NCBI GenBank assembly: GCA_965227835.1
Contig: OZ245768.1
Coordinates: 360,001-392,000, forward strand
Length of the DNA stretch: 32,000 nt
Source: Candidatus Saccharimonadota bacterium
GTDB taxonomy: Bacteria > Patescibacteriota > Gracilibacteria > BD1-5 > UBA6164
Direction: 5' to 3'
Numbering within the stretch: position 1 is the first letter of the stretch; every line of letters begins with the position of its first letter. A model generated the notes under the pieces. The model made no database searches and had not been told where the DNA came from. It saw only the letters and a list, made by a program, of their open reading frames with translations. Below, piece by piece: positions 6,800 to 30,412 of the stretch. A program made the translations under genes and the position numbers.

Positions 6800-7372
6800 A
6801 TGTCCATGGAGTCATTTTTAAAAGAAGTTGTAAAATGAGATAAATTTGAACTTTTAATTGATACTAAAATTTTTAGTAAAGATGTTGTTTTGAAATCAGC
6901 TTATGTTTTTTTGGATAAGGGTTATTTTTTCTTTAAGACTGATTGAGAAAATATTTTACTTCAATTCACTTCTAGGGATAAATCATCTGATAAACCAGAA
7001 GATGTAATAGCTGATTTTTCTGATTGTTTGCTTGAAACTGTTTTGAGAGATAAACTTGAAAAAGATAACAAAACTATAAGGGAAACAATAGTTGAAAAAG
7101 CCATAAATTGACCTCTTGATGCTAGTAATTTTGTGAGTTTGGATACTGACAATATTGCTAATAATAGTGAACAGAATCAAGTTGATTTTGATAAGGATAT
7201 AGATGAAATTTTAAAAGAGATAGAAAATGATCCAGATTTGAAAATAGATGAGGAAGAGATAGAAAAGATATTGAAAGAAATAGAAGAAGAAACAGAAAGT
7301 GAAGTTCAAAAACCGAAACTTACTTTGGATCCTGATGCTATCAAGAAAGCTAAAAAAGATTTTAAGAAATAA
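6800..7372 (+). CDS. hxsD: HxsD-like protein with long acidic C-terminal extension
   Basis: 190 aa. The N-terminal ~110 aa contain ...DFSDCLLETVLRDKLEKDNKTIRETIVEKA, resembling the LLNDYxLRE signature I recall for TIGR03976 (HxsD). The C-terminal half is D/E/K-rich with a duplicated I-x-x-ILKEIE motif. Confidence 0.5.
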
Positions 7373-7394: not shown

Positions 7395-7589
7395 ATGGAG
7401 AAAAGTTTTGAAATAGATTCAAATATTTATAGTTCAAGTTCTATAAAGCAAGCCATATCTGATTTTGAAGATATTGCTCTTTTATCTTTTAAATGATGAA
7501 AACTGTCTATTTCTTGAGAAGATGATTCTTCCGTGCAGGAAGTATTTAATGAGTTTATGAATTATGTTATTTGATTGAGTGTTGAGTAA
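7395..7589 (+). CDS. Small HxsD-like protein (second copy)
   Basis: 64 aa: MEKSFEIDSNIYSSSSIKQAISDFEDIALLSFKGGKLSISGEDDSSVQEVFNEFMNYVIGLSVE. Same N-terminal pattern as the upstream gene and an F-N-E-F-x-N-Y tail. Lies directly before the hxsB region. Confidence 0.4.
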
Positions 7590-7592
7590 ACT

Positions 7593-7859
7593 ATGAATCC
7601 AAGAATAAGTGATTTTTTTTGAATAAAAATAAATATGTATTATGGTGATCATAATCCACCTCATTTCCATGTTAAATATAATGAATATTCTGCTTTTATT
7701 TCTATAGAAAATCCTAAAATACTTGAATGAAACTTACCTATTAAAATTGAAAATCTTGTTATATCTTGGGCTGAACTTTATGAAAAAGAATTATTTGAAA
7801 ATTGGGAACTCGCTTTAAATAAAAAACCTTTGAAGCCTATATTACCATTTATAAAATAA
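7593..7859 (+). CDS. DUF4160 family protein
   Basis: 88 aa. The GIKINMYYGDHNPPHFHVKYNEY motif is the DUF4160 hallmark. Confidence 0.75.
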
Positions 7860-7860
7860 T

Positions 7861-8106
7861 ATGATACATACTGTTAAAAGTGCTATTAGAATAAAATGAA
7901 CTTATAAACTTAGCCTGGAGTTTGAAAATGGGGAAGAAAGAATTTTTGACTTCAAGCAATATGTTTGAGGTAATAATTTTATTTTTTGACCCTTAAAAGA
8001 TTCAGATACTTTTGATCTATTTAAGGTTGAGAATTGAACTGTCGTTTGGGAAACTTGAGCAGACTTCAATCCTAATTTATTGTATAAAAATTCACTAAGC
8101 AAATAA
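7861..8106 (+). CDS. DUF2442 family protein
   Basis: 81 aa. ...YKLSLEFENGEERIFDFKQY...VENGTVVWETGADFNPNLLY is typical of DUF2442, the usual partner of DUF4160. Confidence 0.7.
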
Positions 8107-8108
8107 TT

Positions 8109-9575
8109 ATGTTAAACTTAGAAAAAATTAAAAAAGCTGACACTAGTCAAATTTGATTTTTTAGATTTAAGAAATTTGATTCTGAAAGATACTTAATTAC
8201 AAATGATGCCTGAAAATTTCATTTCTTAAATTTAGAGGATTTTGATACTTTTGTGAGTTGAAAAAATTTAGATAGTTTATCTTGTTATGATGACCTATCT
8301 AAAAAATGATTTATCAAAACAGAAGACTATGAAGCTAAAATGACTGGTAGTGTAGCACTTAAAAATCATTTTGTGTGAGTTTGACCTACCTTGCATATGA
8401 TAGTTACAACTCTTAGATGTAATCACAAATGTAAATATTGTCATGCCGCTGTAGCTCCTATGTCTGCTAAAGAGTTTGATATGAGTCAGGAAACTGCAAA
8501 AAAAGTGGTTGATACTATTTTTTATACTAATTCTCCTAGTTTGACTATTGAATTTCAATGATGAGAATCTTTGGTAAACTATGATGTGGTAAAATTTATA
8601 GTTGAATATTCCAAACAAAGAGCTTTTCATTTAAAGAAAGATTTATCTTTGGTTATGGTTTCAAATCTTACCTTGATGACAGAAGAAAAACTTAAATGGC
8701 TTTTAGATGAAGGTGTAGATATATGTACTAGTCTTGATTGAGATGAAATAACACACAATAATAATAGAACTTGATTTGAATGAAATAGTTTTGAAAAAGT
8801 TACTTATTGGATGAAGAGACTTGGTGAAGAAAAAGAAAAGAGATGAATGTGAAATGTATGAGCACTTCTTACAGTTACAAGAGAAACAATGCCTAGATAT
8901 AAAGAAATTATTGATGCTTATGTTTCTATAGGTTTAGATTGAATATTTTTAAGATGGCTTAACCCTTATGGTTTTGCAGCAGCTCAGACTAAAGAGCTTT
9001 CCTACGAAGATCATGAATGGATAGAATTTTATAAAAAGTCCCTTGATTACATAATGGAGTTGAATAAAAAATGAACATTTTTCTCTGAAAGTATTACAAG
9101 AATTTATTTAGCAAAGATTTTTAATTCTAGAGATCCTGCATTTATGGATATTAGATCACCAAGTTGAATAGGTATAGGTTGAGTAGCCTACAATTATGAT
9201 GGAAAAATTTATGCTTCAGATGAATCTAGGATGCTTGGTAGGATGTGAGATGATGCCTTTTTGATGAGTGAATGATTATGAACCCCTGAAGAAAATTATA
9301 GAGAAATGATAAATAGTGATACTTGTAAAGCTTCTATACAATCATCTACACTAGATTGATTACCTGGTTATAATGAACATGTTTATAAACCTTATATTGG
9401 TGTTGATATAATACATAATTATAAAACCACAGGAAGTTTGTTTTATCCTATTATGAAAGATGAAAAAATAAAATTCCAAACAGAGATTCTTGATTATATA
9501 TTTAAAAAATTAGAAGACCCACAAGAAGAAAAAATACTTATGAGTTGGCTTGTTTGAAAGGAAGAAGTGATTTAG
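8109..9575 (+). CDS. hxsB: His-Xaa-Ser system radical SAM maturase HxsB-like
   Basis: 488 aa. ~100-aa N-terminal domain, then CNHKCKYC (codons at 8418-8441), FQGGESL (GG = TGA TGA), and a long C-terminal domain. Size and architecture fit HxsB (TIGR03978), with HxsD-like and HxsA-like genes in the same locus. Confidence 0.7.
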
Positions 9576-9641
9576 AATGATATAATGTAATAGATTAAAA
9601 TCTATTTCTACTTTGCTGTTAAATATAAAAACTGAAATTTT

Positions 9642-10085
9642 ATGATAATAAAAGAAGAATTTGAAATTAAAATTAATAATTTAAGTAAAGCTCTAGATTC
9701 ATTGAAAGAGTCAATTATTTTAGAGAAGAAGAATACTGAAAAAAATATTTTTTCTATATTTAGGGATTCGGCAATTCAAAGATTTGAATATACTTATGAA
9801 TTATCTTGGAAATTTATGAAATATATATTAGAAAAATATGATAAAGAAATAGAAACTAGAAGTCCCAGACAAACCCTTAAAACAGCATTTAGAGTAGGTT
9901 ATATTGATAATTTAAATCTTTGGTTTAACATTTCTGAATATAGGAATAAAACAAGTCATGAATATGAACAAGATATTGCAGATGAATTATTTGATAATAT
10001 ACCAGAATTTCTTGAAGAGATACAAAAATTTTATGAGTCTATAAAAATTAAGTATGATGGATGATATTTTGAGACAAATAAATAA
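9642..10085 (+). CDS. HI0074-type nucleotidyltransferase substrate-binding (HEPN-like) protein
   Basis: The track ORF (140 aa) extends 7 codons through TGA to TAA at 10083. RDSAIQRFEYTYELSWKFMK...RNKTSHEY matches the HI0074/TIGR01987 pattern. Confidence 0.75.
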
Positions 10086-10341
10086 AGTTTTAAGTAAACA
10101 TTTAGATAAGAATAAATATAAATTCTTTCTATATGGCTCTAGAGCTAAATGAAATTTCTTCTTTAGATCTGATTATGATATTTGAGTATTAGGTGACTCT
10201 AAAATAGATTTGAAAATAAAGTATAAAATAGAAGATGATTTTGAGAATATACCAGCTTTAATAGATTTTACAGATTTTGCCAGTGTTTCTGATGATTTTA
10301 AGAGATTAGCAATGAAGGATGTTTTGCGGTTGAATAAATAA
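10054..10341 (+). CDS. Minimal nucleotidyltransferase (MNT) partner
   Basis: 95 aa. FLYGSRAKGNFFFRSDYDIGV is the GS-x(n)-D-x-D nucleotidyltransferase motif. Overlaps the upstream HEPN-like gene. Confidence 0.75.
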
Positions 10342-10359
10342 ATTTTTAAATGATTTATT

Positions 10360-10653
10360 ATGTCTAATAAAAAAACTTTATATTTTCCTATTACCATAAA
10401 TGAAGAAGATGGTATTTATTGGTGAGAAGCTAAATTTTTTGATGGTTGTTTTTCTCAATGAAATAGTTTGGATGATTACTGAAACAATATGACCCAAGCA
10501 ATATCTTCCTATAGTGAATCTATAAAAGATTGAAGTTTTGATATGCCTAATACTGGAATTTTATGAATTAATCTTGATGATTATGGGAAAATTAAAGATA
10601 GTGTCTTGAAAAGAATTGATAAAAATTCTTACAAAGCATTGAGCTCTGGTTAA
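10360..10653 (+). CDS. hicB: HicB-like antitoxin (UPF0150 fold)
   Basis: 97 aa. ...YFPITINEEDGIYWGEAKFFDGCFSQGNSLDD... matches the HicB N-terminal domain pattern. Confidence 0.6.
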
Positions 10654-10807
10654 AAAATGAAAATGAAATCACTTTAAAGTTAGATTTAACAATAAAAATT
10701 CCATTATACCTGTACATGGAGGTAGAAATTTACCTATTTGACTTTTAAAAGCTATTTTTAACCAACTAGATATTGATAAAGATTTGGATATATTTAAGGA
10801 TTTTTAA
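10622..10807 (+). pseudogene. hicA: HicA-like toxin lacking an ATG start (truncated or non-canonical start)
   Basis: The frame reads KILTKHGALVKKGKGNHFKVRFNNKNSIIPVHGGRNLPIGLLKAIFNQLDI..., a HicA pattern (G-x-H ... IP-x-H ... L-x-x-G-x-L). The frame opens just after a TAA at 10619 and has no ATG. It overlaps the hicB 3' end. Confidence 0.5.
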
Positions 10808-10817
10808 ATGATTTATT

Positions 10818-11069
10818 ATGCTTGATAGAAAGAATTTAATATATAGGAACAAAGAGCTTTTTTGGGATATATCTGATTTTAATAAACTTGGAGATGAAGC
10901 TTTAGAAGAAAGATTTTTAATGTATTGAGATTGGAAAAATATTTTAGATTTAATAGATATTTTTGGATATGAAAAATTTAGAAATATTTATTTAAAATTA
11001 AAAAATAAATCTAGGTGTAGTTTAAATAAAAAGACTATTAATTTTTTTAATCTTTACTTGAATGTATAG
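10818..11069 (+). CDS. Small protein, putative cognate antitoxin of the downstream AbiEii-like gene
   Basis: 83 aa. ...KELFWDISDFNKLGDEALEERFLMYGDWKNILDLIDIFGYEKF... Its stop overlaps the next gene's start. Confidence 0.4.
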
Positions 11070-11675
11070 GGATCTTTTATATGATAATCAGTTTGAAGTA
11101 ATTTTAATTTTGAGCTTATTTTCTAGAGATTTTTATTTAGCTTGATGAACTGCTATAGCTTTGCAATTATGACATAGGAAGAGTTTAGATTTTGATTTGT
11201 TTTCATATAAAAAAATAGATAATAATTCTATCGTTAATAAAATAAAAAATGGTTGATATGAAATTGAGAGAATTTTAATTGATAATAAAAGGAAGAGCTT
11301 ACAGTGATTATTAAATGAGTTAAAATTACCTTCTTATATTATCCTTTTAAAATAAATCTTGAAAATAAATTTGAACAGATTAGTATTCCAAATATAATGA
11401 CTCTATGAACGATGAAATTTTATACACTTTGAAGAAGATGAAAATGGAAAAATTATGTTGATTTGTATTTTATACTAAATAGTTGATATAAATTTTGAGA
11501 TATATCTAGTTTAGCACAAGATATATTTGCTTGAGGCTATAATGAAAAACTTTTAAGAGAGCAACTTTGCTATTTTGAAGATATTGATTATAATGAAGAA
11601 GTTGAATTTATTGAAGAAAGAGTAGATAATAAAGATATAGAGAAGTATTTGATTTCTGTTTCTTGTAGTTCTTAA
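11062..11675 (+). pseudogene. AbiEii/DUF1814-type nucleotidyltransferase toxin, frameshifted
   Basis: Frame A (11062-11355): ...FYLAGGTAIALQLGHRKSLDFDLFS..., the AbiEii N-terminal motif. The family-typical continuation GVKITFLYYPF...MTLGTMKFYTLGRRGKWKNYVDLYFIL...LCYFEDIDYNEE is in another frame that opens at 11289 and ends at TAA 11673-11675. A 1-nt indel lies near the A-run at ~11287. Confidence 0.6.
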
Positions 11676-11695
11676 GAATTTATTTGAGATTTGAT

Positions 11696-11989
11696 ATGAG
11701 ATTATATAAATGACAATATAATTTACTTCAATCTTTAGCAAAAACTATTAACTGAGATTTGTATTTGTTTTGAAGTAGGGTTTATGACAATAAAAAAGGC
11801 TGAGATATAGATATTTTGATTATAAATAAATCTGATAAAGATAATTTAAAATTATCTCTTGAGGTTGAAAGAGAATTTTTTAAATGTTACGAGCAAAAAA
11901 TTGATGTTGTTGTTTTTAATGAAAATATGACGAGAGAGCAAAGACTATTTTTTGATAGTATTAAGAAGCAAAAAATATGACAGATTTAG
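11696..11989 (+). CDS. Minimal nucleotidyltransferase (MNT), second pair
   Basis: 97 aa. LYLFGSRVYDNKKGGDIDILI motif. Overlaps the downstream HEPN gene. Confidence 0.7.
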
Positions 11990-12402
11990 AAAGAGTTTAT
12001 TATGAACAAGTTTTGAAAGCTTATACTCTATATAATGCTAGTTTAAAACACTTGTCTTCTCTTGAAATAGAAAAATTGGAAACACCGGAAGATTTAGAAG
12101 TTCTTGATGCATTTTTTTCTAGATTTGAAAGGCTTATAGAGTTGATTTTAAGTAAATTTTCTAAAACAGTTGAGATAAAAGAATTTTGAATTAGTGAATG
12201 AACTCTTAGGGATAGATTATCTTTGATGGAAAAGAAATGATACATTAGAGATTTAGATTTATGGTTTGATATGAGATGAGTAAGAAATAAAATAGCTCAT
12301 GAATATGTGAATAATTGACTCAAAGATATGTATATTTTCATAATTAATAATTATGATGAAGAGATTAAATTTTTTGTATCTAAAATAAAAAATATTTTTT
12401 AA
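11977..12402 (+). CDS. HEPN/DUF86-like protein, second pair
   Basis: 141 aa with TGA=Gly. ...WFDMRGVRNKIAHEY... carries the R-x(4)-H HEPN motif. Confidence 0.65.
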
Positions 12403-12418
12403 ATTTTAATATTATTTC

Positions 12419-12859
12419 ATGTCTGATAAAAAAAAGAAAATTTTTCCAAAATTAAAGAAAAAGTTAAAATGATTTCTTACTGATGAGAGTGGTAAGATTA
12501 GTAAAAAAGATGCTCTTGGTTTAGCTGCTGGTGCTGCTTTGCTGGGTAGTGTTGGTGAGGTTGCCGCTCATAGTAGTTGACATGGTAGTTGACATGCAAA
12601 TTGAAAAAATCGTCGTGACAGTAGCCAAGATCATCACTGAAGTGCAGTTTGACATGGTAATGCTTCCTGTTCTGTAAATCATGCAAGTTGAATAGTAAAT
12701 TGACATTATAGTTGAACTCCGAATGCCACTGTTGTGTGAGACTCTTGACATTGAAGTGCTTCAGGATCAAATGCAAATGGTCATGGAAGTCATGGAAGTC
12801 ATGGAAGTCATGGAAGTCATGGAAGTCATGGAAGTCATGGAAGTCATGGACAGTGGTAA
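12419..12859 (+). CDS. hxsA: His-Xaa-Ser repeat precursor protein HxsA-like
   Basis: 146 aa: MSDKKKKIFPKLKKKLKGFLTDESGKISKKDALGLAAGAALLGSVGEVAA-HSSGHGSGHANGKNRRDSSQDHHGSAVGHGNASCSVNHASGIVNGHYSGTPNATVVGDSGHGSASGSNANG-(HGS)x7-HGQW. Basic leader, hydrophobic segment, then degenerate and finally perfect H-x-S repeats. 11 in-frame TGA codons. Confidence 0.75.
12782..12850 (+). repeat. Perfect 9-bp tandem repeat catggaagt x7 (plus partial copy) encoding (His-Gly-Ser)n
   Basis: Direct reading. Units start at 12782, 12791, 12800, 12809, 12818, 12827 and 12836, with partial catgga at 12845-12850. Confidence 0.95.
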
Positions 12860-12890
12860 ATAAATATTTATTGTTTAATATAATTTCTAA

Positions 12891-13580: not shown

Positions 13581-13670
13581 ATGTTAATAATTATTATTAA
13601 TGTTATATAAAACTAGTATGTTGTTTTTTTCTCATTTTTATCTCAAATCTTTTATTTTATACCTAAAACT

Positions 13671-15009
13671 ATGAATTATACCTTGTCAGATAGAAATTTT
13701 TTGTCTAGTACATTTAATAATTTTAGATTTATTAGATTGTTGAGAATTGAAACTAAAGACTTTGAATTAGTTGACAGTGATAGAATAATAAGTGGATACA
13801 AGGATTGTATTGAAAATAATAATAGAATTGATTTATATATTCATATTCCATTATTGTTATAAAGAATGTTCTTTTTGTTATCATAGAATGGATCAATATA
13901 GAGGTAAGGAATTAATGGATTCTTATATAGACTTGTTAGAACAACAAATGAAAAACTTGTTCATCTTTTATTGAAAGATATATATAACTTCTTTATGGTT
14001 ATGATGATGAACTCCAACAGTAATGACAGAACAACAAACAATCCGACTATTTAATATTATTGATAAATACTTTATTAGAAATCCAAAATACATCTCAACC
14101 ATAGAATGACATCCTAATTCCCTTTCAAAGTCTAAAATAGATATATTAAGTCAATTTTGAATATCTATGATATCTATTCCCTTACAAACACTTAATGAAA
14201 ATTCATTAAAAATGAACAATAGATACTCCTCCTCTTATATTTATCAAGCTCAGGAAATGATAAACTACTCCATTAGAAAAAAATTTACAGAAGTATCTTC
14301 AGATATGATTGTTTGATTGGAATGAACTAATTTAAAATATGATATAAAAACATTCAATTTTTTAATGAATCTATGAGTGGATTGTATAGTAATCTTTCCA
14401 TATCAATTGAGTACAAAAAATCATAGATTTAGTAATACCGAATTTATAAAATTTAATAAAAATATAGAAGAAAGAATTAATTCATTGTTATTATACATAA
14501 GAAGATATACTGTATACAATATATTCAATCATGCAAAATATTGTAATGCTATATATGTGACTAAAAATTTATATTTAGGTGATAAAAAGTATCATACATT
14601 TTATTATAGATCCAAAAAAAGTCTAATATGATTAGGAGCATATGCTTTATGACATACATATAAAAAAAATTATTATAATTGTGATCTTGAAGATTATGTT
14701 AATAATAAAGGCAAATACAAATTATATAAACTATCTGATAATGAAGATATTTTATATTATATTTTAATGAATTTTGATAACTACTGATTTATAAACACTA
14801 AAGTATGTAATGAAATATTTTCTGTTGATATATTTAAAGCATTCAAAACACTCTCTTATCTTTTATCAAAGGAAGTAATTTACTTGAAGTGAAATTATAT
14901 ATATTTAAATGATTCTATGAGTAGAGACAAGATATTTCTTTATTTCTTAAAAATGATAAAGATAGAATTTCCTAATTTATATTGTCAATATGGTATCAAC
15001 AACATTTAA
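13671..15009 (+). CDS. HemN-like radical SAM protein, apparent +1 frameshift at ~13851 (intact from ATG 13792 in the downstream frame)
   Basis: Frame 1 (13671-13862) ends ...NRIDLYIHIPLLL*. The next frame reads ...YCYKECSFCYH...LWLGGGTPTV...IEGHPNS...ISIPLQTL...VGLEGTN..., ending at TAA 15007-15009. Skipping one base gives LYIHIP-YCYKECSFCYH, the canonical HemN-family motif. Confidence 0.7.
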
Positions 15010-15949
15010 AGAAGTATTTATAGAGCTAACTGACAAGTGTAATTTATCATGTGATTACTGTCATAAATATTGATGAAATAGCTTTATAGAAATAAAACTA
15101 TTTGAGAAAATTATTTCTCAAATAGTTAATAATCACCTTTCAAAAATTGATTTTTTGTGTATTTGGTGATGAGAACCTTTTTTGCATCCTAAAATTGAAA
15201 ATATATTTCAAATACTATCCAAATACTTCCAATACGTTCAAAAAGATTTCAAAATAGTTATTAATACAAATTGAATTTTATTGAAAAATAATATTCAAAG
15301 GATAAAAAAACTCGCTCAAAATTTAGATAATATAAATTTTGTGTTGTATGTTTCTCTTGACTGATATTGAATAAATTGAAATATTTATAGGAAAATAAAT
15401 CACAGAGAATATAAAATTATTTTAGAAAATATAGATAACATTTTATTAATTAATAGCCATAACTTGTCATTACAAATTAGTTCAGTTTTAAATTTTCAAA
15501 AATGAGTTTATAATATATCTGACTTTATAAATTTTTGGAATTTAAAATGAGTTTCAATAAATTTCTGCTTTCAAGAAATGTTGTATTGAAAGAATAAAAA
15601 ATTAAACAAAGGTTTATTGCTAAATATATTAACTAAAGCACTTTTCCTCTATAAAAATTGATATAATATTGTTATAGAAAATAGTTTAAATATGAATAAT
15701 GTTATTAGAATTGATGTTTTTTGAAATGTTTATAATTTTTTTGATAAAAGTTTCTTTGAGAAAAATAATTATAAATTTCTATTGTCTAAAAATTGAGATT
15801 TAGATTTTTTAAACCAAGGTAATTGGGAGTTAGAAATTGAAAATGATTATATTTGGTCTATTATATATAGAGACAAAAATTATTTGAAAATAATAAATTT
15901 ATTTTACAGTTTGTACTTGAAAAATAAGACAATTTCATGAATGGATTAG
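14990..15949 (+). CDS. Radical SAM protein
   Basis: 319 aa. IELTDKCNLSCDYCH near the N-terminus, then CIWGGEPFLHP (GG = TGA TGA). Overlaps the upstream gene by 20 nt. Confidence 0.7.
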
Positions 15950-16023
15950 AAATTTATAGTTATTTTTTTGGTTTTTTAAATTAAATTTCTATTAATTAAT
16001 ATTTTTGTTATTAGATAATTATT

Positions 16024-17403
16024 ATGGATAGTTTAAATAAAGATTACTGGAATACCTTTGCTTTCATAGCTGATAATACAACCGAATGAGAAGTCTTTCC
16101 ACCAGAAGACTTATTTAAAAGCTGTTCTAAAAATGATATTTTTTCTCTAATAAAGAATTATGTAGATAGTTGAAACTATAATAAGAAACCATATTTATCT
16201 TTATATTTTAATTTTCCATATTGTAACGAAAGATGTAGTTACTGTTGCTTAGCTAGTATTTGATTAAACAATAAATCAAAAATAGAAAAATATATTCTAG
16301 AATTGATAAGTGATATAAAAGCTGTATGAAGAATCTTAAAATTAAATCCTCAAATAAAAATTGATATATTATTTTTTTCTTGATGAACTTTTACTATTAT
16401 TGACGATTTTTTATTTGAATTATTCCTGAAGACCATAAAAGATAATTTTCAATTTAAAGATAATTATACATATGAAATGGAATTACATCCTGCTACAACT
16501 ACAGAAAATAAAGTTAATATAATGAAAAAGTACTGAGTAAATACTGTAATGTTATGAATACAATCATTAGATGAGTTAGTTTTGAAAAATTCTAACAGAA
16601 TTCAAACAAATAAACAAGTATTTAATGCAGTTAATCTAATTAGAAAATTCAACTTCAAAACTCTTAATGTAGACATAATCGCTTGATTGCCCTTTGAAAA
16701 AATTAGTACTTTTGTCAATAACCTAAAAATCATAATTACTAAAATTAATCCCGATATTATACATATGTATCCATTTTCACCAACAGATAATACATTGTTT
16801 ACAAAAATGTGACATAAGTTTACATCAGAACAGATAATAAATAGAGATAAAATGTTTTTATTATGAGAAAAATTAATTAAATCTTTTGATTATATAAAGT
16901 CAGATTGATATGTAAAAGTTTGAAAAGAAGTAAATAGCATATGGTGAATGAAATGCTATAAAGATATGTCCGTAATATCTTTTTGATATCCCCTTGATAT
17001 TCAATGATATCTTGAATGAGTATGATGTTATACCTCTCGGTATAATAGTAGCTATGCTATATATACTTATAAAAGTAAAGATATTATTTTGAGAAGAGAA
17101 TTATTTAGACTAACTTGGCTTTGAAAAGATATAAATTTAGCACATTTAAACAATAAATTCTGAATAGATGTTTTAAAGTATTTAAGTAGTGAATTTAGAG
17201 TTTTATTTGATAGTAATATCATTAATTTTAAATGAAGTGAAATTATTAGTTTTAATACTAGATATGTTTGGGAAAAAACTATATGTAGATGGATTTTTTT
17301 ACCTAAAAATTTATTAAAGGAGTTTTTACTTAAAAATAAAATTAATCATAATATTAATTATATAGATAAATTTAGGAAAAAATTATGAGAATATTATAAA
17401 TAA
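16024..17403 (+). CDS. HemN-like radical SAM protein (paralog of the 13671 gene)
   Basis: 459 aa. LYFNFPYCNERCSYC, FFSGGTFT, MELHPATT, MLGIQSLDE and DIIAGLPFE fit the HemN/coproporphyrinogen-III-oxidase-like family layout. Confidence 0.75.
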
Positions 17404-17414
17404 TTTATATAATT

Positions 17415-18344
17415 ATGAAACATATAGAATTAAATATATGACTTGCTTGTAACCATAAATGCATCTTTTGTATGTCGGGTATTGCAAGATGAAAAATTTT
17501 GTGATTTGAAAATGTATCTAATTTAAAACATGAAATAGATACATTATCTTCTAAATGATATGATTCTATATGATTTTTATGATGAGAACCTACTATACAC
17601 CCAGGTTTTTTGGAATTAGTATCCTATGCTAAACAAAAGGGCTTTATTAATATTGAAGTTATAACAAATTGATCAAAATTTCATAATAAGAAAATCTTGT
17701 TAGAATGTGTTAAGTCAGGATTAACAAGAATATCTTTATCAATTCATTCTCTTGATTATAAGAAAGAATCTATTTTATTATGAGGTATAGATAATGCTTT
17801 AGATCAAAAAATAGAGTCAGTAAAGAATATAGTTTATATATATAATAAATGATTATTAAAAAAAGAGCTATCTATAAATATTGTTGTAACTAAAAAAAAC
17901 TATAAAGATATCTATAAATTAATATTATATCTTTATAAGTTTTGAGTTAATTCTTTTAGGCTTAATTTTGTTCAACTTGAATGATATTCAACACAAAACT
18001 ATAATTTAATAGCAATAAAATATGAGAATTTTAAGAAATATCTATTAGATATAATATCACTAAGTAAAAAATATTTAGATTTAAGAGTAAATTTTGAAGC
18101 TATACCTTGGTGTTTTAGTTGATTGAATTATAAAGATTATTTAATATATTCAGAACAATCTATCGATAGGGAAAAAGATAAAATATCTAGAGACGATATA
18201 GATTTTAAATCTAGAAATATTATAAATCAACTTGATAGAAGAAAAGAATTGAAGTGATATATAAAAAAATGTAATATGTGTTTTTTGAAATCAAATTGTG
18301 AAGGAATTTGGAAAAGATATTTAGAATATTTTAATATTAACTAA
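17415..18344 (+). CDS. Radical SAM protein with C-terminal Cys-rich (SPASM/twitch-like) tail
   Basis: 309 aa. NIGLACNHKCIFC, GFLGGEPTIHP (17571-17591, three Gly by TGA), and C-terminal KKCNMCFLKSNCEGIW. Confidence 0.75.
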
Positions 18345-18350
18345 ATTATT

Positions 18351-19274
18351 ATGAATATTTCATGCGCATCAAATTTAGACGATGTATTTATAAAAAAAAT
18401 ATCTGATAATATAAATGAAAAAAAATTAGAATTCTTCTTATCTTTTCCTAGTGATAAATTCTCATTGAATAGACATTTTATTCCCAATATAAATTATGTT
18501 GACTTTAAGAAACATATACATTTAATAATATCCAGTTGATATAAAGTAAATTATTTACTAAACTCTTTACTTATAAATGATTATGATTTATTGATAAAAA
18601 AAATCTCAGATTTAACAAATATCTGAATAGATACCTTTACGGTTTCAGATTTAAAGGTTATTGAATTTTTAAATAAAAAATTTCCCCAAATTAATATTGT
18701 ATTATCTATTATTTATTGACTAAAATATACAGAAGATATTTATAAACTTTTAAAAAAATATAGTATTTCTAGATTTATTTTTGATCAATCTTTAAATCAT
18801 AATTTCAGGGGTTTAATAAATTTGACAAAAGAATGTAAAAAAAATTGAATAGAAACAGAAATTTTAGTTAATGAATTATGTTTTACTGATTGTAAATATA
18901 GAAAACAACATTATAATTTAGATTCTAAATATAGCAAAATTGATTTTAATTTAAAATCTAAACTATGAGATTATTGTAATGATGAAAGAAAATCAAATAA
19001 CATAATTTTAGACTCTCCTTGGATTAGACCTGAAGATATTGAAATATATGAAAAAATATGAATTGACTATATAAAAATATCGTGAAGAAACTCGTGAACA
19101 GATGTCTTATTTAATTGCTTGGATTCTTATATAAATAAAAATTATATTTGAAATTTTTTTGATTTAATGGATTTAGATTGAAAAAGAGATGATAAAACTT
19201 GAAGATCAGAAACAAGGTATTATGATAATAAAAGATTAAACTCAGTTTTATTATCTAAAATTAAAAAATTATAA
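18351..19274 (+). CDS. Peptidase U32 family-like protein
   Basis: 307 aa. ...SPWIRPEDIEIYEKIGIDYIKISGRNSG... resembles the U32 (PrtC/YhbU-type) core motif ending in K-I-x-G-R. Has Cys pairs (LCFTDC, DYC). No CxxxCxxC. Confidence 0.45.
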
Positions 19275-19278
19275 ATAA

Positions 19279-20187
19279 ATGAATAATATACGTTCGCATT
19301 TAATACGTGTAAATATGATTTGCAATGAAACATGTTCTTTTTGTAATGTAACAAGCCAAACTGAACCAAATTATAAAGATAAAACTATTTTTGAAATTCT
19401 AATAGAAGTTCAAAAAATTATTAAAAAAAATAATGGTCCTGAACTTGTAAAAATTACTTTATCATGATGAGAGCCCACCATTAGAAAAGATATTTGTAAA
19501 ATAGTTCTTTGAATTAAAAAACTATGAATTAAATATATTGAAGTCCAAACAAATGCAACATTATTAAAACCTAAATTAGCTTGAGATCTGATACTATCTT
19601 GAGTTAATAAATTTTTTATTTCTTTTCATAGCAACAATAAAGCTATATTTGAAGAGTATGTTTGACTTAAAAAAATATTTAAAATAGTTGTAAATAACAT
19701 AAAAAATTTATGAAAATATAATGATATTGAGGTCATATTGAATCCAGTGATAAGTAGGAAGAATTATCAAAACTTAAAATCATATTTTGATTTTGTTAAA
19801 AAGGAATTTATTTTTGTAAAGTATATATCTTTATCTTTTATTCAGCCACACTGAGAGGCTGAAAAAAATATAGACTTAATGCTAGATTATGATTTTGTTA
19901 GTAAAAATTTAGCTTGAATATTAGATTATGCTTATAATTTGTGATTTATTTTGAATAACCCCTATTGTTGATTGCCAATTTGCGTTTTATGATGGGATAA
20001 ATATAGTAAAAATTGTATAGAAGTTATTGAAGGTAAGGAAATTATTGACAATAATAAATTAAGGTTTGATAACAATAAAATATACTTGGAAGAATGTCAA
20101 AGCTGTATTTATAAATGATTATGTGGTTGAGTTTGGAAAAAATATGTAGATTTATATTGAAATAAATGAATTAATACCATAAAATAA
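19279..20187 (+). CDS. Radical SAM protein with C-terminal Cys-rich tail
   Basis: 302 aa. VNMICNETCSFC, ITLSGGEPTI, and C-terminal ECQSCIYKGLCGGVW. Confidence 0.75.
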
Positions 20188-20197
20188 ATTAAAACCA

Positions 20198-21112
20198 ATG
20201 AAAAGATTAGAGTTTCACATTTCATATATTTGTAATCATGACTGTATTTTTTGTAGTGAATATGATAGATTAGTTACATATAAAAAAAATCCTTTAACTA
20301 TTCTTCAAATAAAAACTATATTGCTTGATAGAAGAAAGAAATGATTTAATCATATTAATTTTACTTGATGAGAACCAACAATCATACCTTGATTTATAAA
20401 TGTTTTGAAATTTGCAAAAAAGCTTTGATATAAAATTTATGTTTGAACTAATGGAACCATGTTTTCTTCTAATGATTTTGCAAAGCAAGCACTAGAATTT
20501 ATAGATGAATTATCTTTATCTATTCATTGGTATGATAAGGAAACTTGTGAAAAACAAGTCTGAGTACCCAATCATTTTAATATTTATAAAAATTACATAT
20601 CAAAAAATATATGAAAATATAAAAACGATAAAACATTTTTATTTTCTAACGTTGTTTTAAATAAATACAATTATAAAAATACTTTAGATATAGTTAAATT
20701 TATAAAATCTACATATCCTTGAATTAAGCAAATACTAATATCAAACATAGCTCCTGAATGATTAGCAGATAATGATTTTTCTAGTTTAGTTTTTGATTTA
20801 CTTAATTTTAAAAATTATATTCCTGGCATTGTAAATTATTGTAATGATAATGATTTAATATTAAGGTTTTTTTGAATACCGATGTGTATAATAACAGAAA
20901 AATATCAGGATTATTCTAATGATAAACATTGGGAAGAAAGGCATACAATAGAAAGATTTACTAATGAGAATTGAAATATTGTATTGAAAGATATTTATAG
21001 TCCGGATAATTCTAGAAAAAGATCTTTTGTTTCCAAATGTGAAACTTGTAAGTGGAAAATAAATCCTTGTACAGGAGTTTTTAAAAAGTATTTAGATTAT
21101 TATAATATATAA
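20198..21112 (+). CDS. Radical SAM protein
   Basis: 304 aa. HISYICNHDCIFC, NFTGGEPTI, and C-terminal KCETCKWKINPCTG. Confidence 0.75.
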
Positions 21113-22065
21113 TGGAACTTATATATATACTTACATATGATTGTAATTTTAGGTGCAAATACTGTGATATAAATAAGAGAAATGAAAATATATCTGATAA
21201 TATAATAAAAAAAAGTATTACCTATTTAAGAAACAATAACTTTGATATAGATAAAGTTAAGTTTTTTTGATGAGAGCCATTACTAAAGAAACAAGAGATA
21301 GAATTTATTGTAAGCAATTTTCCAAAAAAATATAATCCTAATTTTTATATTACATCAAATTCAACATTAATTAACGATGATTTTATTAATTTTGTTAAGG
21401 ATAATAATATTAAGCTAACCTTTAGTATTGATTGAAGTAACAAAACAACTAGTGAAAATAGAATTTTAGAAAATTGATTAAATCTATCTAATAGTATAAT
21501 AGAAAATACTAAAAAATATAAGGATAATATAAGAATTAATCAGGTTATAACCTCAAAAAATTCAAAAGATTTCTTTAAAAATTTTAAATTTATATATGAT
21601 TTATGAGTTAGGAATTTTAATTTCTTACCTGAATATTATAAAAGATGGAGTAAGTCATGACTATCAAATTTGAAAAAATGATTTGATGAAATATATGAAT
21701 TTTACAAATCTTGAAACTATTTTGGCTTAGTTAATTTAGATAATTATAGTGATACTTCCTTCTTTAATCTCTGAATTGTTATTGATACAGATTGAAATTT
21801 GTATTTAACTAATTTAATACTTTCATGAATATTTGAAAAATATAAAAAAAATTTAACTGTATGAAATGTATATGATTGTAATATACAAGTTAACTTTTCA
21901 AACGTAAATTTTAGTAAAAAATATTTAAAAAGAATTAAAGAAATTATAAAAAAGGAGTATAGTGAAGAAGTTTTAAAATCTGTTAAATATGTCGACTTAA
22001 TATTAAATAATTTTTGTAATAACTTTAGTTTATGTCAACAACAAAATTTATCTATAACCAAATAA
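21112..22065 (+). CDS. Radical SAM protein
   Basis: 317 aa. ILTYDCNFRCKYC, KFFGGEPLL. Its start overlaps the upstream stop (TAATG at 21110-21114). Confidence 0.7.
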
Positions 22066-22088
22066 AAGAAAAATATATTAGTATAAAA

Positions 22089-23018
22089 ATGTTTAATCAT
22101 AAATTTCCTAATTTAATTGATAATATTTTTATTGAATACTGAATAAAAATATCTGTAGTAAAGAAGTTTAGGTTTCATGCTTGTAACACCGTTTTGCTTA
22201 TGGAATCAAATCGAGGCCATTTATATATTTTAAAGATTTTTAATAAGATTCAAAGATATGGACAATTTGAAATTGAATATAAAATTTCTAATATTTTAAG
22301 TAAAAATTGAATAATAATACCTAAAATAATTAAGAATTTATCAAATGATTTTAATAGCTTTTATGATACGAAAAAAATTGTTTTATATGATTTTATAGTT
22401 GCTAGAGATTTATCATGAAGTATTGATGATATAGATTTAGTTATTAGAAAATTTGCTAATTTTCATATTACTCTTAATTCTAATATTTATATTACAAATC
22501 TATTTTATCAGAAGAAATTATTTAACAAAGAGCTTAGTAAAACAAAGAACAGTATTTTTTATGATATATTTTGCTTTTTTAAAAATACAAAATATAGTAT
22601 ACTTACTAATATTTTAAAAAATTGTTTAAATTTTAACTTGTATTGTGATATTGAAAATATTATTTATTGATGATTGAGCAAAGATCATATAGCTATAAAA
22701 AATCATAATTTAATCTTGTATGATATGGAGTCTATATGACTTTGAGACTTATACTTAGATGTTATGTATGTAATATATTATTTATGATATAGAAATAACG
22801 ATGAAAATTTGGAAATTTATAAAATGATTCATATGTTAAATGTATATAATAAATTTAATAAATTGTATATAACTAAAAAAAACTTTAATCTATATGTTCT
22901 TTATTTTTTATTTTTAGATTTTAAAGTTATGTTAAAACAAAAAAATGAATTTACAGATTTTCATTTAAATAGACATTATTATAATATTTTAAATTTTTAT
23001 AAATTATATTTTTGATAA
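22089..23018 (+). CDS. Kinase-fold (APH/CotS-like phosphotransferase) protein, divergent catalytic loop
   Basis: 309 aa. ...IIYGGLSKDHIAIKNHNLILYDMESIGLGDLYLDVMYV... has the Brenner-like region and the D-x-E...D-L pattern of APH-type kinases, but lacks a clean H-G-D-x(4)-N. Confidence 0.45.
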
Positions 23019-23719
23019 ATAACGAAAAAATAAAGATAGTTTTTGATAAGCTTTTAAATAAATGAAGCTATAAAATTTATAATTCAAATGTTGGCTTCAT
23101 TGTAGTTCCTTATAAATCAAAATTTGTATATAAGATATTTTTTAATCAGAAATTATTTTTTAGAGAACTAAATATTTATAACCTACTAAGAGAAAATTCG
23201 AATATTCTCATACCAAAATTTAAGAACGATTTTTCATTAAAAAATTTTTTCGTACTCAAACTAGAAAATGTTAGAACACAATATGAAAGAAAAAATAATA
23301 TATTAGACTTAGATTTAAAACAGATTGCTGATATATTATATACTATTCATAGTTTTTCGTATAATTCAAGAAACCTAATTTTATGAGATATACATTCATC
23401 TAATTTTTACGAAATAAAATATGATCAAGAATTAAAATTATGAATATTTGACTTTTCATCCTCAAAATACTGAGATATAGAAGAAGATATAGCTAATCTT
23501 TATATAGAAATATGAATAAATGATTCAATTTTGAAAAATTTTCTAAAGTATTATTGAAATAATAATATTAATTATTTAAAAATTTATTATTATTCTATAA
23601 GTGAATTATACGAAAGAATTAAAAATGGTATGAATTTATCAAATGAAAAAATAAATATATATAATAAAATGTTATTGTCTCTAAGGTATAAATTATGAAA
23701 ATTAAGCATTTTAAAATAA
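23012..23719 (+). CDS. Kinase-fold (APH-like phosphotransferase) protein
   Basis: 235 aa from a TTG start, since no in-frame ATG is available after the TAA at 23000. LILGDIHSSNFY...LKLGIFDFSSSKYGDIEEDIANLY matches the H/L-G-D-x-H-x-x-N and D-F motifs. Confidence 0.5.
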
Positions 23720-24450
23720 TTTGATATTGTAATATATTTGAACAAGTTATAATTTGATGAAGCAAATTAAAAATAGATGTACTGATTGATGATTATGATT
23801 GAACTGAATTAGTTTTAGATATTTCGAATTATTCACACAAGAAATTTATCAGTTTTTTTTGTAATAATTTTTCTAAAATTATAGAAGTTAATTTTCTTTG
23901 ATATAAGGGATTAAGTTGTGGTAAAAAATCTTTAGATTCTAGGATTAAACTGAAAAACAAATGAAATATTTATTACTCAAATACAATATGAAATTATATT
24001 TTTAATGAAGATTTTGTATGTATTAACAATTATAACTTTAAAAATCTTGATCATCATTTATGAGTATATAATAAATATGAAAATTCGTTATATGAACAGG
24101 TAAGGGGAATAAATAAGATAAAATTATATCCGAATGACATTATTTTTTTTGACAGAAATAAATGAAATTTGAATAATTTTATAAATTTATGACTTAATTT
24201 TAATTATATAATTAAGAGTTATATAATTAATTTAAAGAGATGAAAAAAAAGTATTTTTTATAGAAATATTTTTTGAAAAGATTCTAGTGATATAGTATAT
24301 GAAAATATAAATAGAATATTAAAAAGTTTCAAATATGGTACATATTTTATCTACAATGTTGATTTAGAATATTTAGATAATTATGTATTTGATGAAAAAT
24401 ATTATTTATATGACTATCATTTTAAACCAGTTTTTAGTAATTTTATTTAA
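23695..24450 (+). CDS. Hypothetical protein
   Basis: 251-aa open frame with TGA=Gly, overlapping both neighbours. No family recognised. Confidence 0.45.
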
Positions 24451-25409
24451 TGAAAAAATTGAAACACATAGAAATAAATATTTGAAAAGCTTGTAACAAT
24501 AAATGTAAATTTTGCATGAGTTCGAAACCTTCTTTATGGGATATAAAATTCTCAAAATTTGATATCATAAGGAAAAGTCTAAATGAATATTATAATAATT
24601 GATATAGATCTGTTTGATTTTTATGATGAGATATATCAATACATCCGAATGTATTAGAAATTATTAAATGTTGTAGAGAAATATGATATCAGAGTATTAA
24701 CATTATTAGTAATTCTATGAGGTTTAGTGATTTCTCTTTTGCATATAATATAGTAAAAAAATGACTAACTAGAATTAATATATCAATACACTCTCATATT
24801 AGCTATATTGAAGATGATTTAACTCAAGTAAAATGATGATTACAAAAAAAACTAAGAGCAATAGATAATTTTTCTTTTTTATATAAAAAATGAATTTTAC
24901 AGAGTCCAATTAGTATTAATATTGTTGTAAATAAAAAAAATTATTTATATATTGTTGAAACCGTTCTATACTTTTTTAAGGAAAAAAATATAAAAGATAT
25001 AAGAATAAACTTTATTCGGCTCAGTGATGATGTGAAAGAAAATTGGGATTTGCTTAAAATATCATATAGTGAGTTCTTGCCATATTTAAAAAAGCTTATA
25101 TATCTGTCTCTAAAATATAATATAAGAATTACTTTTGATACCTTTCCTCCATGTATATTTTATTTAGTAAGTTTTAAAAATTATAAATATATCATTAATA
25201 AGTTTTTATGAGAAAAGTTTGATCATATAAACGAAATACTATGGTTGAATAAAGAAACAAGTTTTAATTGGAAAGATAGGAAAGCTAATGAATTGAAGGC
25301 AAAATTTAAACAATGTAGTAACTGTTTTTATGAAAATGTTTGCGAATGAGTATGGAAAGAATATGATGAAATTTATTGAAATAAAGAATTTATTCCCATA
25401 AAATTGTAA
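24450..25409 (+). CDS. Radical SAM protein (paralog of the 17415 gene)
   Basis: 319 aa. NIGKACNNKCKFC, GFLGGDISIHP, GLTRINISIHS, and C-terminal KQCSNCFYENVCEGVW. Collinear with the 17415 protein. Start overlaps the upstream stop (TAATG). Confidence 0.75.
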
Positions 25410-25413
25410 TAAA

Positions 25414-26601
25414 ATGTGATATGTGAAGATATGTTTAGATGACGATATTAATACAATTATTTATAATACTTACTACCATGTAAAACATTGAATAAATAAT
25501 GTATTATTTTATAATAGTTTAAATGGAAAAACTTTAAATAAAAATAAGGTACTAAAAGTTGTATCATACATGATAAATAAGCATAATTCTGTAAAATATT
25601 TGTTTTATAATGTACCATTTTGTATTTTTGATAAATTGTGAAAGAAATTTATAGATAAATATTGTGTATTTAACAGATTATGTAATTATTATATTTGATA
25701 TAATAGCTATGGCAAATGTAATTTGTGCGATTTTGGTTTATTTTGTAATAATTTTAATTCTCTAATTAATAATAGTGAAATAAAGGAATTAAACGGTTTT
25801 TACTGAGAAAAAATTAATAAATATACTTTTTTGATAAAGTTTATAAAAATATATAATTTTTTCATAATGCTATGATATTCTGATAATGAAATAATCTTGA
25901 GTTCAAGGCAGAAATATTTTATGCAATTTTTGAGGGGTGCTAAAATTAATAAAAATTTCTTATCATATTTAACTTTGACTATTAAATTATCTAATCGATA
26001 CATAAATTATAATGTCTTTAAAAATAAAAATAAAATTGCTATTTTTAAAAATAAATGTTTAAATGATATATTTTTTTATTTACAAAGAAAGTGCTGAATA
26101 AATATTTTGTTGGAATGTGATAACTCTACAATTGATTTATTTGAAAGTAATAAATTTGTAGTAAACTTTCTTGGTAAAAACCTAATTTTTTTAAATACTT
26201 GATTTTATAATATAGATCCCCCCTTTTTTGATTTTGATTATAATAATTTATTTTTAGATAAAAATGCTACTGTATTTAAGTGAGTATCTTTAAATAAAAA
26301 TTTAGGTATATTTTATGGGAATGCTAGAATTGTAAAAAACTCAAAAGATTTTTTGTACAATAGAATTTGAGATGTTTATGTTTGAAAAGATATTTTTTCT
26401 TGAGTAAATATTGAAAGTTTTAAGGCTATACTTATTACAAGTGATTGATCATCAGAACATGTTAGACTCTACGAAATAATAAACTCTATAAAAGTTCCAA
26501 TTATTGAAAGGATAAAACCAAATATAGTAGAAATTATAAAAAATGGAAGTAAATTAAAGATTGATTTTAGTACTTGAACTATCAATTTAATTAAAACATA
26601 A
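25414..26601 (+). CDS. Cys-rich protein resembling a stand-alone auxiliary-cluster (SPASM-like) domain plus unknown C-terminal domain
   Basis: 395 aa. The N-terminal third carries PFCIFDK...YCVFNRLCNYYIGYNSYGKCNLCDFGLFC. No CxxxCxxC/GGEP core. The frame agrees with track ORF 25897-26097 read through TGA. Confidence 0.45.
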
Positions 26602-29050: not shown

Positions 29051-30319
29051 ATGGAAAATAAAATAAATTTACTCTCAAAAGAACAAACAACAAAACAAAA
29101 TAGAATATGGGTAAGGATAGCATCAGCCTGTAACAATAAATGTATTTTTTGTTTGGATAGTGATGCTCAAAATGGAACATTCCCTCAAGAACAAACCATC
29201 AAAAAACAAATAAAAGATTGATATAAACCTTGATATGAAAATAGAGTTATTATTTCTGGTTGAGAAGCTTCAATTAATCCCAGATTTCCAGAATATATAT
29301 CTTATGCCAAGATTATTTGATATCATAGAATTCAAACAGTTACAAACGGAAACATGTTTTTTAGAAAAGAATTCTGTGATAAAGTATTTTATGCTTGACT
29401 TGAGGAAGTCACTTTTTCTTTTCATTGACATAACTCAAAACTCCATGACTACCTCGTCGCAACTCCATGAGCTTTTAAAAAATCTTTGCAATGACTTATT
29501 TATATAAAAAAATATTATCCCGAAATTATCCTAAATGTAGACATAGTAGTAAATAAGGTAAATGTAAAGTATCTTCCAGACATCGTTAAATTTTTTATGA
29601 AACTTTGAGTGTATGAATTTGATATTCTCCAAATTATACCTTTTTGAAGGTGATTTCGTGAATATAAAAAACAGCTATTTTATGATATATCGACAAATGT
29701 TTACCATTTACAAAAAACATGGGAACTATCAAAAATACCTTGAATGTATATGTGGACCAATAGATTTCCAGTTGAAGCATTTGAATGATATGAAGATTTA
29801 ATTCAAGATCCAAGAAAGATAAAATCTGAAGTTATGTGAGAAGGTAGGGAAATGTTTGAATCATTTATAAAATCTAAATGAAAAGATAAGCCTGAGTGCT
29901 TTTGAGAAAGATGTGATTATTGTTTTTTAAATCAGTATTGTCATGGTTATATAAATAATATAAATACCAAGAAGTTAGATATAAATTCAAATTATAAAAT
30001 TATATATTGAGAAGAGTTTCCAAGCCTCGTTTATGAAAAATATTGAGAGAATTCAAAAGATTTTAAAAAATATTTAAAATCAATAAATAATAAATTAATA
30101 AATATTCCAAAATGCTTATGATGAACTTGAATTTATCAAAAATATAATGATTTAAAACAAAGAAATACTTTAGAGGATTATACCTATAAATATATTAAGA
30201 ATTTATATATAAAGAAATCTTTAAATTGTAAAAAATGTAAATATAATAATAAATGTGAAGGAATTCATATAAATTTTATAAGAAGTTATGGTTTTAGTAT
30301 TTTACAACCAATTAGGTAG
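29051..30319 (+). CDS. Radical SAM protein with C-terminal Cys-rich region
   Basis: 422 aa. VRIASACNNKCIFC, IISGGEASINP, VTFSFHGH, and later ECFGERCDYCFLNQYCHG and LNCKKCKYNNKCEG. Confidence 0.75.
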
Positions 30320-30412
30320 TTTTATCATATCATTTTTACTTTTTTTACCCGATTATAAGTTTAAATGTAGTTATTAAAAATTAAATTATATATCAATTAA
30401 CTATAAATTTAA

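Follow-up and report, generated by a model that had tools for sequence, protein, structure and literature searches.

A probable HxsA-like substrate gene and its radical-SAM neighbourhood in a code-25 member of the Gracilibacteria

The window analysed here is a 32,000-nucleotide stretch of DNA from Candidatus Saccharimonadota bacterium (placed in the Gracilibacteria by GTDB; assembly GCA_965227835.1, contig OZ245768.1, positions 360,001 to 392,000 of the forward strand), and the gene in question lies at 12419-12859 (+) and codes for a small protein rich in histidine, serine and glycine. From its sequence and gene context, we put the probability at about 80% that it encodes the substrate (effector or precursor) in an HXS (His-Xaa-Ser) system of Gracilibacteria type, a product that would be matured by radical S-adenosylmethionine (SAM) enzymes. 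The locus is a divergent variant of the known HXS system and not a new kind of system.

The assignment is carried by three genes lying upstream of the hxsA-like gene and by the constancy of their order. These are hxsD (6800..7372, +; TIGR03976 58.5 bits, cut-off 50), which is 54-62% identical to neighbours of related HxsA genes that bear PF27806, a gene for a small HxsD-like protein of 64 amino acids (7395..7589, +; NF038315 [HxsD_rel] 41.2 bits, cut-off 41), which is kept between hxsD and hxsB in relatives, and hxsB itself (8109..9575, +; TIGR03978 486.2 bits, cut-off 370), coding for a radical-SAM/SPASM maturase with 35% identity to canonical HxsB. In at least about 30 related genomes, where the contig allows, the order is HxsD, HxsD-like, HxsB and HxsA followed by HxsC-like, SPASM, HemN-like or U32-like genes. 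In its genomes the family is tied firmly to HxsD, the HxsD-like protein and HxsB, and further radical-SAM genes nearly always come after it. The suggestion of a first-pass annotation, made from the letters alone, that an hxsA-like precursor is acted on by hxsB and neighbouring radical-SAM enzymes is supported at the sequence level by the three above-cut-off matches and by this fixed order.

The gene, its protein and its family

The window has a G+C content of about 22% and is read with a reassigned stop codon. With translation table 11 it has 8 open reading frames (ORFs) of at least 100 amino acids, as against 56 with TGA read-through, and 12419-12859 (+) contains 12 in-frame TGA codons, which when read as glycine (code 25) give a protein of 146 amino acids ending at a TAA codon. 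Almost all radical-SAM genes of the window spell their GGEP motif with TGA, and the Walker A motif GPTGSGKST of a PilT is written likewise. At 75 positions aligned with standard-code Omnitrophota homologues, window TGA codons correspond to glycine in 43 cases and to tryptophan in none, which together with the GGEP and Walker A motifs rules out TGA as tryptophan (code 4). No tRNA gene was found in a scan of the window. The gene at 12419-12859 (+) codes for a conserved protein when TGA is read as glycine, and the coordinates and frame given for it in the first-pass annotation were found to be correct when the translation was checked.

Under the standard code gene callers lose this family, leaving an antisense ORF in the window and leader-only fragments of 30-77 amino acids in public data (P0158-P0177), while code-4 calls show W where the DNA has TGA in many of the relatives. 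At the hxsA-like gene the longest table 11 ORF is the antisense 12498-12899 (minus), of 133 amino acids (MTSMTSMTS...), and ORFs in several frames do arise from low-complexity repeats, both of which would suit a reading in which the plus-strand frame is a chance ORF in an AT-rich repeat or an assembly artefact, or in which the antisense ORF is the true gene. Such a reading is effectively refuted by sequence comparison: hundreds of plus-strand homologues share a leader and a core motif that are conserved and not repetitive, their synteny and alignment agree, and code 25 holds across the window. An assembly artefact in the repeat, one of two outcomes which the earlier annotation had named as fatal to its proposal, is unlikely because the tract is a mere 71 bp, and the tract is shared by all relatives.

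A search of 5.8 billion proteins gave 245 relatives of 90-240 amino acids, and a profile search of 1.84 billion representatives gave 320, 141, and 26 clusters at E ≤ 1e-3, 1e-10, and 1e-30, respectively. The family was found almost solely in code-25 Gracilibacteria. Species genomes of GTDB were also scanned with a degenerate leader pattern, which is permissive and yields chance hits, for example in Pelagibacteraceae, so that matches were filtered by code-25 translation. This resulted in at least about 30 distinct hxsA-like genes in species-level genomes labelled Candidatus Gracilibacteria, Peribacteria, Patescibacteria group and Altimarinus. A protein search with the leader only returned the 30-77 amino acid code-11 truncations of the same family, with no other type of core on the leader. 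One relative (L003; the pair also appears as L106) has two hxsA genes in tandem (9609-9959 and 10001-10480), coding for 116 and 159 amino acids with near-identical leaders and different cores. Literature searches on Gracilibacteria with radical SAM or histidine-rich proteins found nothing relevant, and none was found on HxsA- or HxsC-like proteins of Gracilibacteria.

The protein of the window has the layout MSDKKKKIFPKLKKKLKGFLTDESGKISKKDALGLAAGAALLGSVGEVAA, then HSSGHGSGHANG...NHASGIVNGHYSGTP..., and then (HGS)x7 HGQW. Its leader (amino acids 1-32; 12419..12514) consists of a Lys-rich N-terminus and the conserved FLTDESGKISKKDA, for which a helix is predicted in the model of a homologue. This is followed by a short hydrophobic segment (amino acids 33-50; 12515..12568), LGLAAGAALLGSVGEVAA, with a Kyte-Doolittle maximum of 1.73 at amino acids 32-46, which ends in a V-x-A putative cleavage site. 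A diverged core rich in His, Ser and Gly (amino acids 51-121; 12569..12781) has degenerate H-x-S(-G) units and, within it, the conserved core motif NHASGIVNGHYSGTP (12677..12721), which contains two HxS units and is preceded by Cys84. Seven identical CATGGAAGT units (12782..12844) then encode (HGS)7, and the tail HGQW with its stop codon (12845..12859) closes the gene, the terminal tryptophan being TGG. The basic leader, the hydrophobic segment, every H-x-S-G-type unit, the seven perfect HGS repeats and the HGQW end described in the first-pass annotation are all present in the translation.

There are 13 HxS units in the 146 amino acids. Six of these lie in the diverged core, together with four HxSG, both numbers being above the expectation from composition (shuffle p = 0.001 and 0.0002, respectively). 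The putative mature part has 96 amino acids, of which 17 are His, 21 Ser and 23 Gly (64% in total), with a net charge of about +1.5 at pH 7 and about +8.5 at pH 6.

Four modules are recognizable across the family, these being the leader, a variable His/Ser/Gly core, a C-terminal (H-G-S)n array and a terminal aromatic residue or Cys. The leader, of about 50 amino acids, comprises a basic helix, the motif FLTDESGKI[S/T]KKDALG, a hydrophobic helix of short length and a V-x-A whose register is fixed, and with its hydrophobic segment it is the best-conserved part in the family alignment, columns P10, K14, F19, L20, T21, E23, G25, K26, I27 and K29 being nearly or fully invariant. The hydrophobic segment is about 11-12 residues long in the family and [V/I]-x-A falls 14-16 residues past KKDAL. 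Among the 31 sequences that bear KKDAL, the first [V/I/A/L/G]-x-A lies at exactly 14 amino acids past it in 24, and such a triplet is present at an offset of at least 9 in 30. The geometry of this segment and V-x-A is that predicted for a signal-peptidase-type site and not for a membrane anchor. The conservation peak over the leader and hydrophobic segment also fits the earlier proposal that the hydrophobic stretch may be an export or recognition element. An AlphaFold2 model of a homologue has two helices, both in the leader, with the rest unstructured (predicted local distance difference test score 52.8, low confidence).

The middle part of the family is variable in length and sequence, with coiled-coil inserts in some members, and the motif H-A-S-G-I-V-N-G-H-Y-S with its two HxS units is found in 29 of 31 members. 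In 13 of these 29 a Cys occurs 1-8 residues upstream of the motif, the equivalent in the window being Cys84 (12668-12670), and several tails of the family end in Cys-containing motifs (GGWC, CSSMC, GRGCW). These cysteines are possible cross-link sites or metal ligands. At the C-terminus is (H-G/A/S-S)n, with n = 2 to 30, and then a short tail, the last residue of which among 31 relatives is W in 20, C in four and Y in three.

Relation to known HXS systems

The canonical HXS system consists of HxsD-HxsB-HxsC-HxsA (TIGR03976-03979), and its antiphage role was shown only in 2026 (Li et al., PMC13128918). In the survey of that study, 99.7% of systems were in Pseudomonadota, to which the system was reported to be nearly exclusive, and more than 99.8% had exactly four genes. 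Canonical HxsA has a signal peptide and a peptidoglycan-binding domain. In Escherichia coli mature HxsA blocks phage DNA entry, and the protein undergoes HxsB/C/D-dependent N-terminal processing and carries a +8 Da modification in the sequence SHRSS (PMC13128918). The canonical HxsA encoded on an Aeromonas plasmid, used here for comparison, has a signal peptide of 22-30 amino acids and, close to its N-terminus, basic HRS/HSS repeats, and it carries a peptidoglycan-binding-like domain at the C-terminus.

Like these, the window encodes a His-Xaa-Ser repeat protein together with above-cut-off HxsB and HxsD. By analogy, its hydrophobic export-like N-terminal segment would go with radical-SAM maturation and N-terminal processing of the kind expected for HXS. 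There are also differences. The repeats of the window protein are C-terminal and of the H-G-S type, whereas canonical ones are basic H-R-S or H-S-S; the window protein has a long conserved leader before the hydrophobic segment, without a peptidoglycan-binding domain; the locus has the additional HxsD-like gene; and in place of a true HxsC it has six distant HxsC-like paralogues along with HemN-like, SPASM, U32-like and kinase-like genes. It is hosted by a code-25 bacterium of the Candidate Phyla Radiation (CPR), unlike the 99.7% of known systems that are in Pseudomonadota.

A closer resemblance is to a standard-code locus of Omnitrophota (L004), which has the same gene order and many downstream radical-SAM genes. 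Its protein, named HxsA4 by NCBI, has a leader with FLLSEEGKVSK (compare FLTDESGKISK), a hydrophobic segment, (SHG)n and the end HGSHGSHGQW, of which HGSHGQW is identical to the end of the window protein. The Omnitrophota proteins differ in that they are without the H-A-S-G-I-V-N-G-H-Y-S core motif of the Gracilibacteria branch. NCBIfam models exist for such rare variants (HxsA3, HxsA4, HxsC4 and HxsD_rel), and the architecture is already known to curators. Aligned relatives match HxsA3 in 28 of 28 cases at E ≤ 0.01 (best 1.1e-13) and HxsA4 in 22 of 28. None of those cut-offs is reached by the HxsA and HxsC-like proteins of Gracilibacteria, HxsD_rel alone being passed (7395-7589).

Downstream of hxsA lies a tailoring cluster (13888..26601, +), and similar gene sets follow hxsA in relatives. 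It has four HxsC/HxsC4-like radical-SAM genes (17415-18344, 19279-20187, 20198-21112 and 24450-25409, +), two other radical-SAM genes (14990-15949 and 21112-22065, the latter SPASM/PapB-like, +), two HemN-like genes as well as unknowns (within 13888..26601, +), a U32-like gene (18351-19274, +; weak Pfam match) and a kinase-like gene (22032-23018, +; Pfam). Two further HxsC/HxsC4-like radical-SAM genes with below-cut-off scores (29051-30319 and 30413-31357, +) are split from the main cluster by an IS481-like transposase (27634-28704, minus), beside which is a transposase fragment (27214-27657, +). In total 11 radical-SAM genes lie within 23 kb (8109-31357), namely HxsB and ten more, of which six are HxsC-like, two HemN-like, one PapB/SPASM-like and one MoaA-like. 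The set of tailoring enzymes is much larger than in the characterised HXS system.

The six HxsC-like genes have 18-22% identity to canonical HxsC. For five of them HxsC4 and HxsC are the two best NCBIfam models, and for 17415-18344 HxsC4 is the best and HxsC the fourth; their best HxsC4 score is 134.8 bits against a cut-off of 500, reached within the pair at 29051..31357. The motif CxxCx5C-G at the C-terminus is common to these genes and canonical HxsC, and it is worth mentioning that the six paralogues, mutually distant as they are, share it in the extended form CxxCx5C-G-[VI]-[WY]. The U32-like gene recurs beside hxsA in other genomes (L012, L109), and the relative with the tandem hxsA pair has a weak APH-family gene where the window has the kinase-like gene.

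A number of results weigh against the assignment to HXS. With the window protein HxsA3 (NF038309) reaches 28 bits against a cut-off of 65, over amino acids 9-82 (leader), and HxsA4 (NF038313) 29.3 bits against 55, over amino acids 105-146 (tract) only. Canonical HxsA (TIGR03979) gives no match even at E = 10, nor does BLASTP against the Aeromonas HxsA, and Pfam finds no domain in the protein, including no peptidoglycan-binding domain. No radical-SAM gene of the window attains the HxsC cut-off (TIGR03977, 267.9), the best score being 94.6 bits (30413-31357). It is because of these shortfalls, in HxsA3, HxsA4, canonical HxsA, the peptidoglycan-binding domain and HxsC, that the locus is described as a variant of the known system. 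The X position in the window protein is mostly Gly and not Arg, so at neutral pH the electrostatic model of DNA binding put forward for E. coli HxsA is a poor fit. PADLOC-DB 2023 has no HXS model, and its sole matches are generic radical-SAM similarity to viperins.

Gene spacing also belongs to these adverse points. Where readable, hxsB and hxsA in relatives are directly adjacent, mostly about 20-120 bp apart, but in the window hxsB is 2.8 kb upstream, and given this gap the co-transcription of the two genes is uncertain; a scan for promoters and terminators around hxsA gave nothing above the expectation from shuffled sequence. The hxs operon, contiguous in relatives, is here interrupted by small toxin-antitoxin-like two-gene modules. 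A DUF4160 and DUF2442 pair (7593..8106, +; Pfam) is inserted between the hxsD-like gene and hxsB and is not at that position in relatives, and the insert between hxsB and hxsA (9642..12402, +) contains two pairs of HepT/HI0074 and MntA-like genes, a split AbiEii-like gene (11062-11355 and 11397-11675) and one unknown gene.

Together with the at least about 30 related genomes, the locus constitutes a divergent branch of HXS in code-25 CPR bacteria, the HxsA and HxsC-like parts of which are missed by curated models. For studies of how HxsB and HxsC act chemically, the branch provides natural sequence variation as a guide, with a leader and one HxS-containing motif that are invariant and a tract that varies.

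Repeat length and glycine codons of the HGS tract

Tandem Repeats Finder reports a 9-bp period with 7.9 copies at 100% identity (12780-12850, 71 bp). The first three units of the core (12569-12604) have a 12-bp periodicity, corresponding to the four amino acids of H-x-S-G. The first-pass annotation described a gradient, with diverged units followed by perfect ones, and this order is indeed present; its view of one repeat decaying along that gradient did not hold, as the 12-bp H-x-S-G units differ from the 9-bp HGS units and therefore represent two periodicities.

Runs of four to seven identical units occur in several relatives as well. Clusters of at least 90% identity vary by whole HxS units alone (129, 117 and 102 amino acids in Omnitrophota, 122 and 131 in Gracilibacteria), which is direct evidence within the family for in-frame slippage polymorphism. 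The identical units of the window and this variation bear out slippage, which had been proposed as a recent expansion at the 3′ end, while the idea of the tract as a young addition was not upheld, the tract being family-wide. As a feature the HGS tract is ancient and only its present copies are young. The comparison of copy number across strains that had been suggested did show length polymorphism in the clusters of relatives; for the species of the window itself, two exact-pattern scans of Joint Genome Institute (JGI) metagenomes found no other strain. Changes in tract length by replication slippage would remain in frame, altering the valency of the product and leaving its expression unaffected, and the hxsA-like family is a clean example of in-frame repeat hypervariability.

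Glycine in the diverged core is encoded by TGA in 11 of 15 cases, as opposed to GGA in seven of seven in the perfect tract. This contrast in codons had been noted earlier and attributed to the age of the units; the contrast stands, and age is insufficient as its explanation because imperfect tracts share the avoidance of TGA. In other genes of the window TGA accounts for 76% of glycine codons. Throughout the code-25 family it makes up 60% (315/524) of glycine codons outside the tract and 11% (21/190) inside it, or 10 of 64 when each distinct unit inside the tract is counted once, and its fraction is lower in the tract than outside in 28 of 29 genes, imperfect tracts included (sign test 1e-7). 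Candidate causes are selection against dense decoding of a reassigned codon, or an ancestral GGN kept through concerted evolution. Either way the avoidance of TGA-encoded glycine inside the repeat is a reproducible bias which bears on the use of reassigned stop codons.

Putative role of the product and remaining genes of the window

From the homology of HxsB and HxsD and from the strict synteny, a sequence of events may be proposed in which the protein is bound, modified, cleaved and exported. Docking on HxsB and/or the HxsD proteins would take place through the conserved leader, which would double as an export signal of the Sec type. Covalent modification of His/Ser units would then be the work of HxsB and the HxsC-like paralogues, and possibly also of the HemN-like, U32-like and kinase-like enzymes, with the invariant core motif being the best candidate for site-specific modification and the HGS tract for iterative ones. 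The leader would be cut off after V-A-A, between amino acids 50 and 51, and following export the product of about 96 amino acids may work as a multivalent histidine array beyond the cytoplasmic membrane. If E. coli HxsA is taken as the analogue, the most likely role would be envelope-level defence against phage DNA entry, an assignment that is tentative and which we would hold at rather below even odds.

The main rival is that the gene encodes a precursor from which a heavily tailored and diffusible RiPP (ribosomally synthesised and post-translationally modified peptide) is made, in place of a defence effector resident in the envelope. The radical-SAM, HemN-like, U32-like and kinase-like enzymes would here produce a cross-linked or methylated core that is freed after leader cleavage. 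It might serve these episymbiotic or predatory bacteria, for instance, in metal uptake as a metallophore, as an antimicrobial or in their interaction with a host. SPASM-matured RiPP precursors with short repeated targets are known in the form of CXXX-repeat peptides, ranthipeptides (PapB) and three-residue cyclophane peptides. They would resemble the present case in having a leader-guided SPASM maturase beside a small repeat-bearing precursor, and models of the PapB and CcpM types are the next best after HXS models for HxsB and for 21112-22065. They differ in that the targets in the window would be His/Ser and not Cys or aromatic residues, and in that its product is much larger. The classic layout of leader plus core, the one invariant and the other hypervariable, speaks for such a peptide, as do the two tandem precursor genes in one relative, the 11 radical-SAM genes of the window (far above the two of the defence system), the want of an anchoring domain in Pfam, and a His-rich array with a Trp or Cys end that would suit metal chelation. 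Among the hallmarks of RiPP-type precursors, a conserved leader against a variable core and adjacency to the maturase are observed, and leader binding and cleavage are putative. On the other hand a diffusible RiPP of about 96 amino acids would be a large one, neither a dedicated transporter nor a leader protease was found beside the gene, the U32-like gene being a weak Pfam match, and the sole experimentally studied HXS system is one of defence (PMC13128918). We consider a released peptide possible and, on balance, unlikely.

Lower still stands the suggestion that the protein is an unmodified histidine-rich metal-binding protein, secreted or membrane-tethered, which buffers Ni, Zn or Cu and has radical-SAM neighbours only incidentally. 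It would be in keeping with the 17 His in the putative 96-amino-acid mature part and with a charge that titrates with pH, and histidine-rich metal-storage proteins such as Hpn of Helicobacter are known, which likewise have a high His content in short repeats. These, as generally understood, are cytoplasmic, leaderless and not linked to radical-SAM maturases, unlike the protein of the window. The strict synteny with HxsD, HxsD-like and HxsB in at least about 30 genomes of two phyla is not incidental, and the conserved 32 amino acids before the hydrophobic segment would have no role in a simple secreted protein, making this a quite improbable account.

A more far-reaching reading joins several of these elements, and as a whole it is doubtful. 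According to it the Gracilibacteria cluster would not replicate the four-gene defence system but form a distinct lineage-wide pathway. As many as about ten radical-SAM enzymes, along with HemN-like methyl/methylene transferases, the U32-like enzyme and the kinase, would remodel a long His/Ser/Gly polypeptide. The exported product would be a cross-linked histidine polymer of a new kind, in-frame slippage of HGS units would tune its valency, and the glycines of the tract would be kept as GGN instead of the TGA that dominates elsewhere, the dense decoding of a reassigned codon being costly. If true, the GGN pattern would be a visible footprint of stop-codon reassignment constraining the evolution of a repeat.

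Other genes of the window have features that deserve mention. Directly after hxsA, 12891-13580 (+) codes for a protein of 229 amino acids with an N-terminal transmembrane segment and many Cys, which matches no family and has a counterpart in one relative alone (L034, 28% identity). The first HemN-like gene (about 13668-15009, +) looks frameshifted, with MNYTLSD...DLYIHIPLLL* in one frame and, past the stop, the CxxxCxxC motif (FHYCYKECSFC) and the rest of the protein in the next; a sequencing error, recoding or decay to a pseudogene might each explain this. Upstream, 2618-4054 (minus) encodes a predicted surface protein of 478 amino acids with a signal peptide, an acidic (EEV)n repeat and a C-terminal transmembrane anchor, which has a very weak match to the CPR pilus protein PamR and lies near the PilT gene (336-1445).

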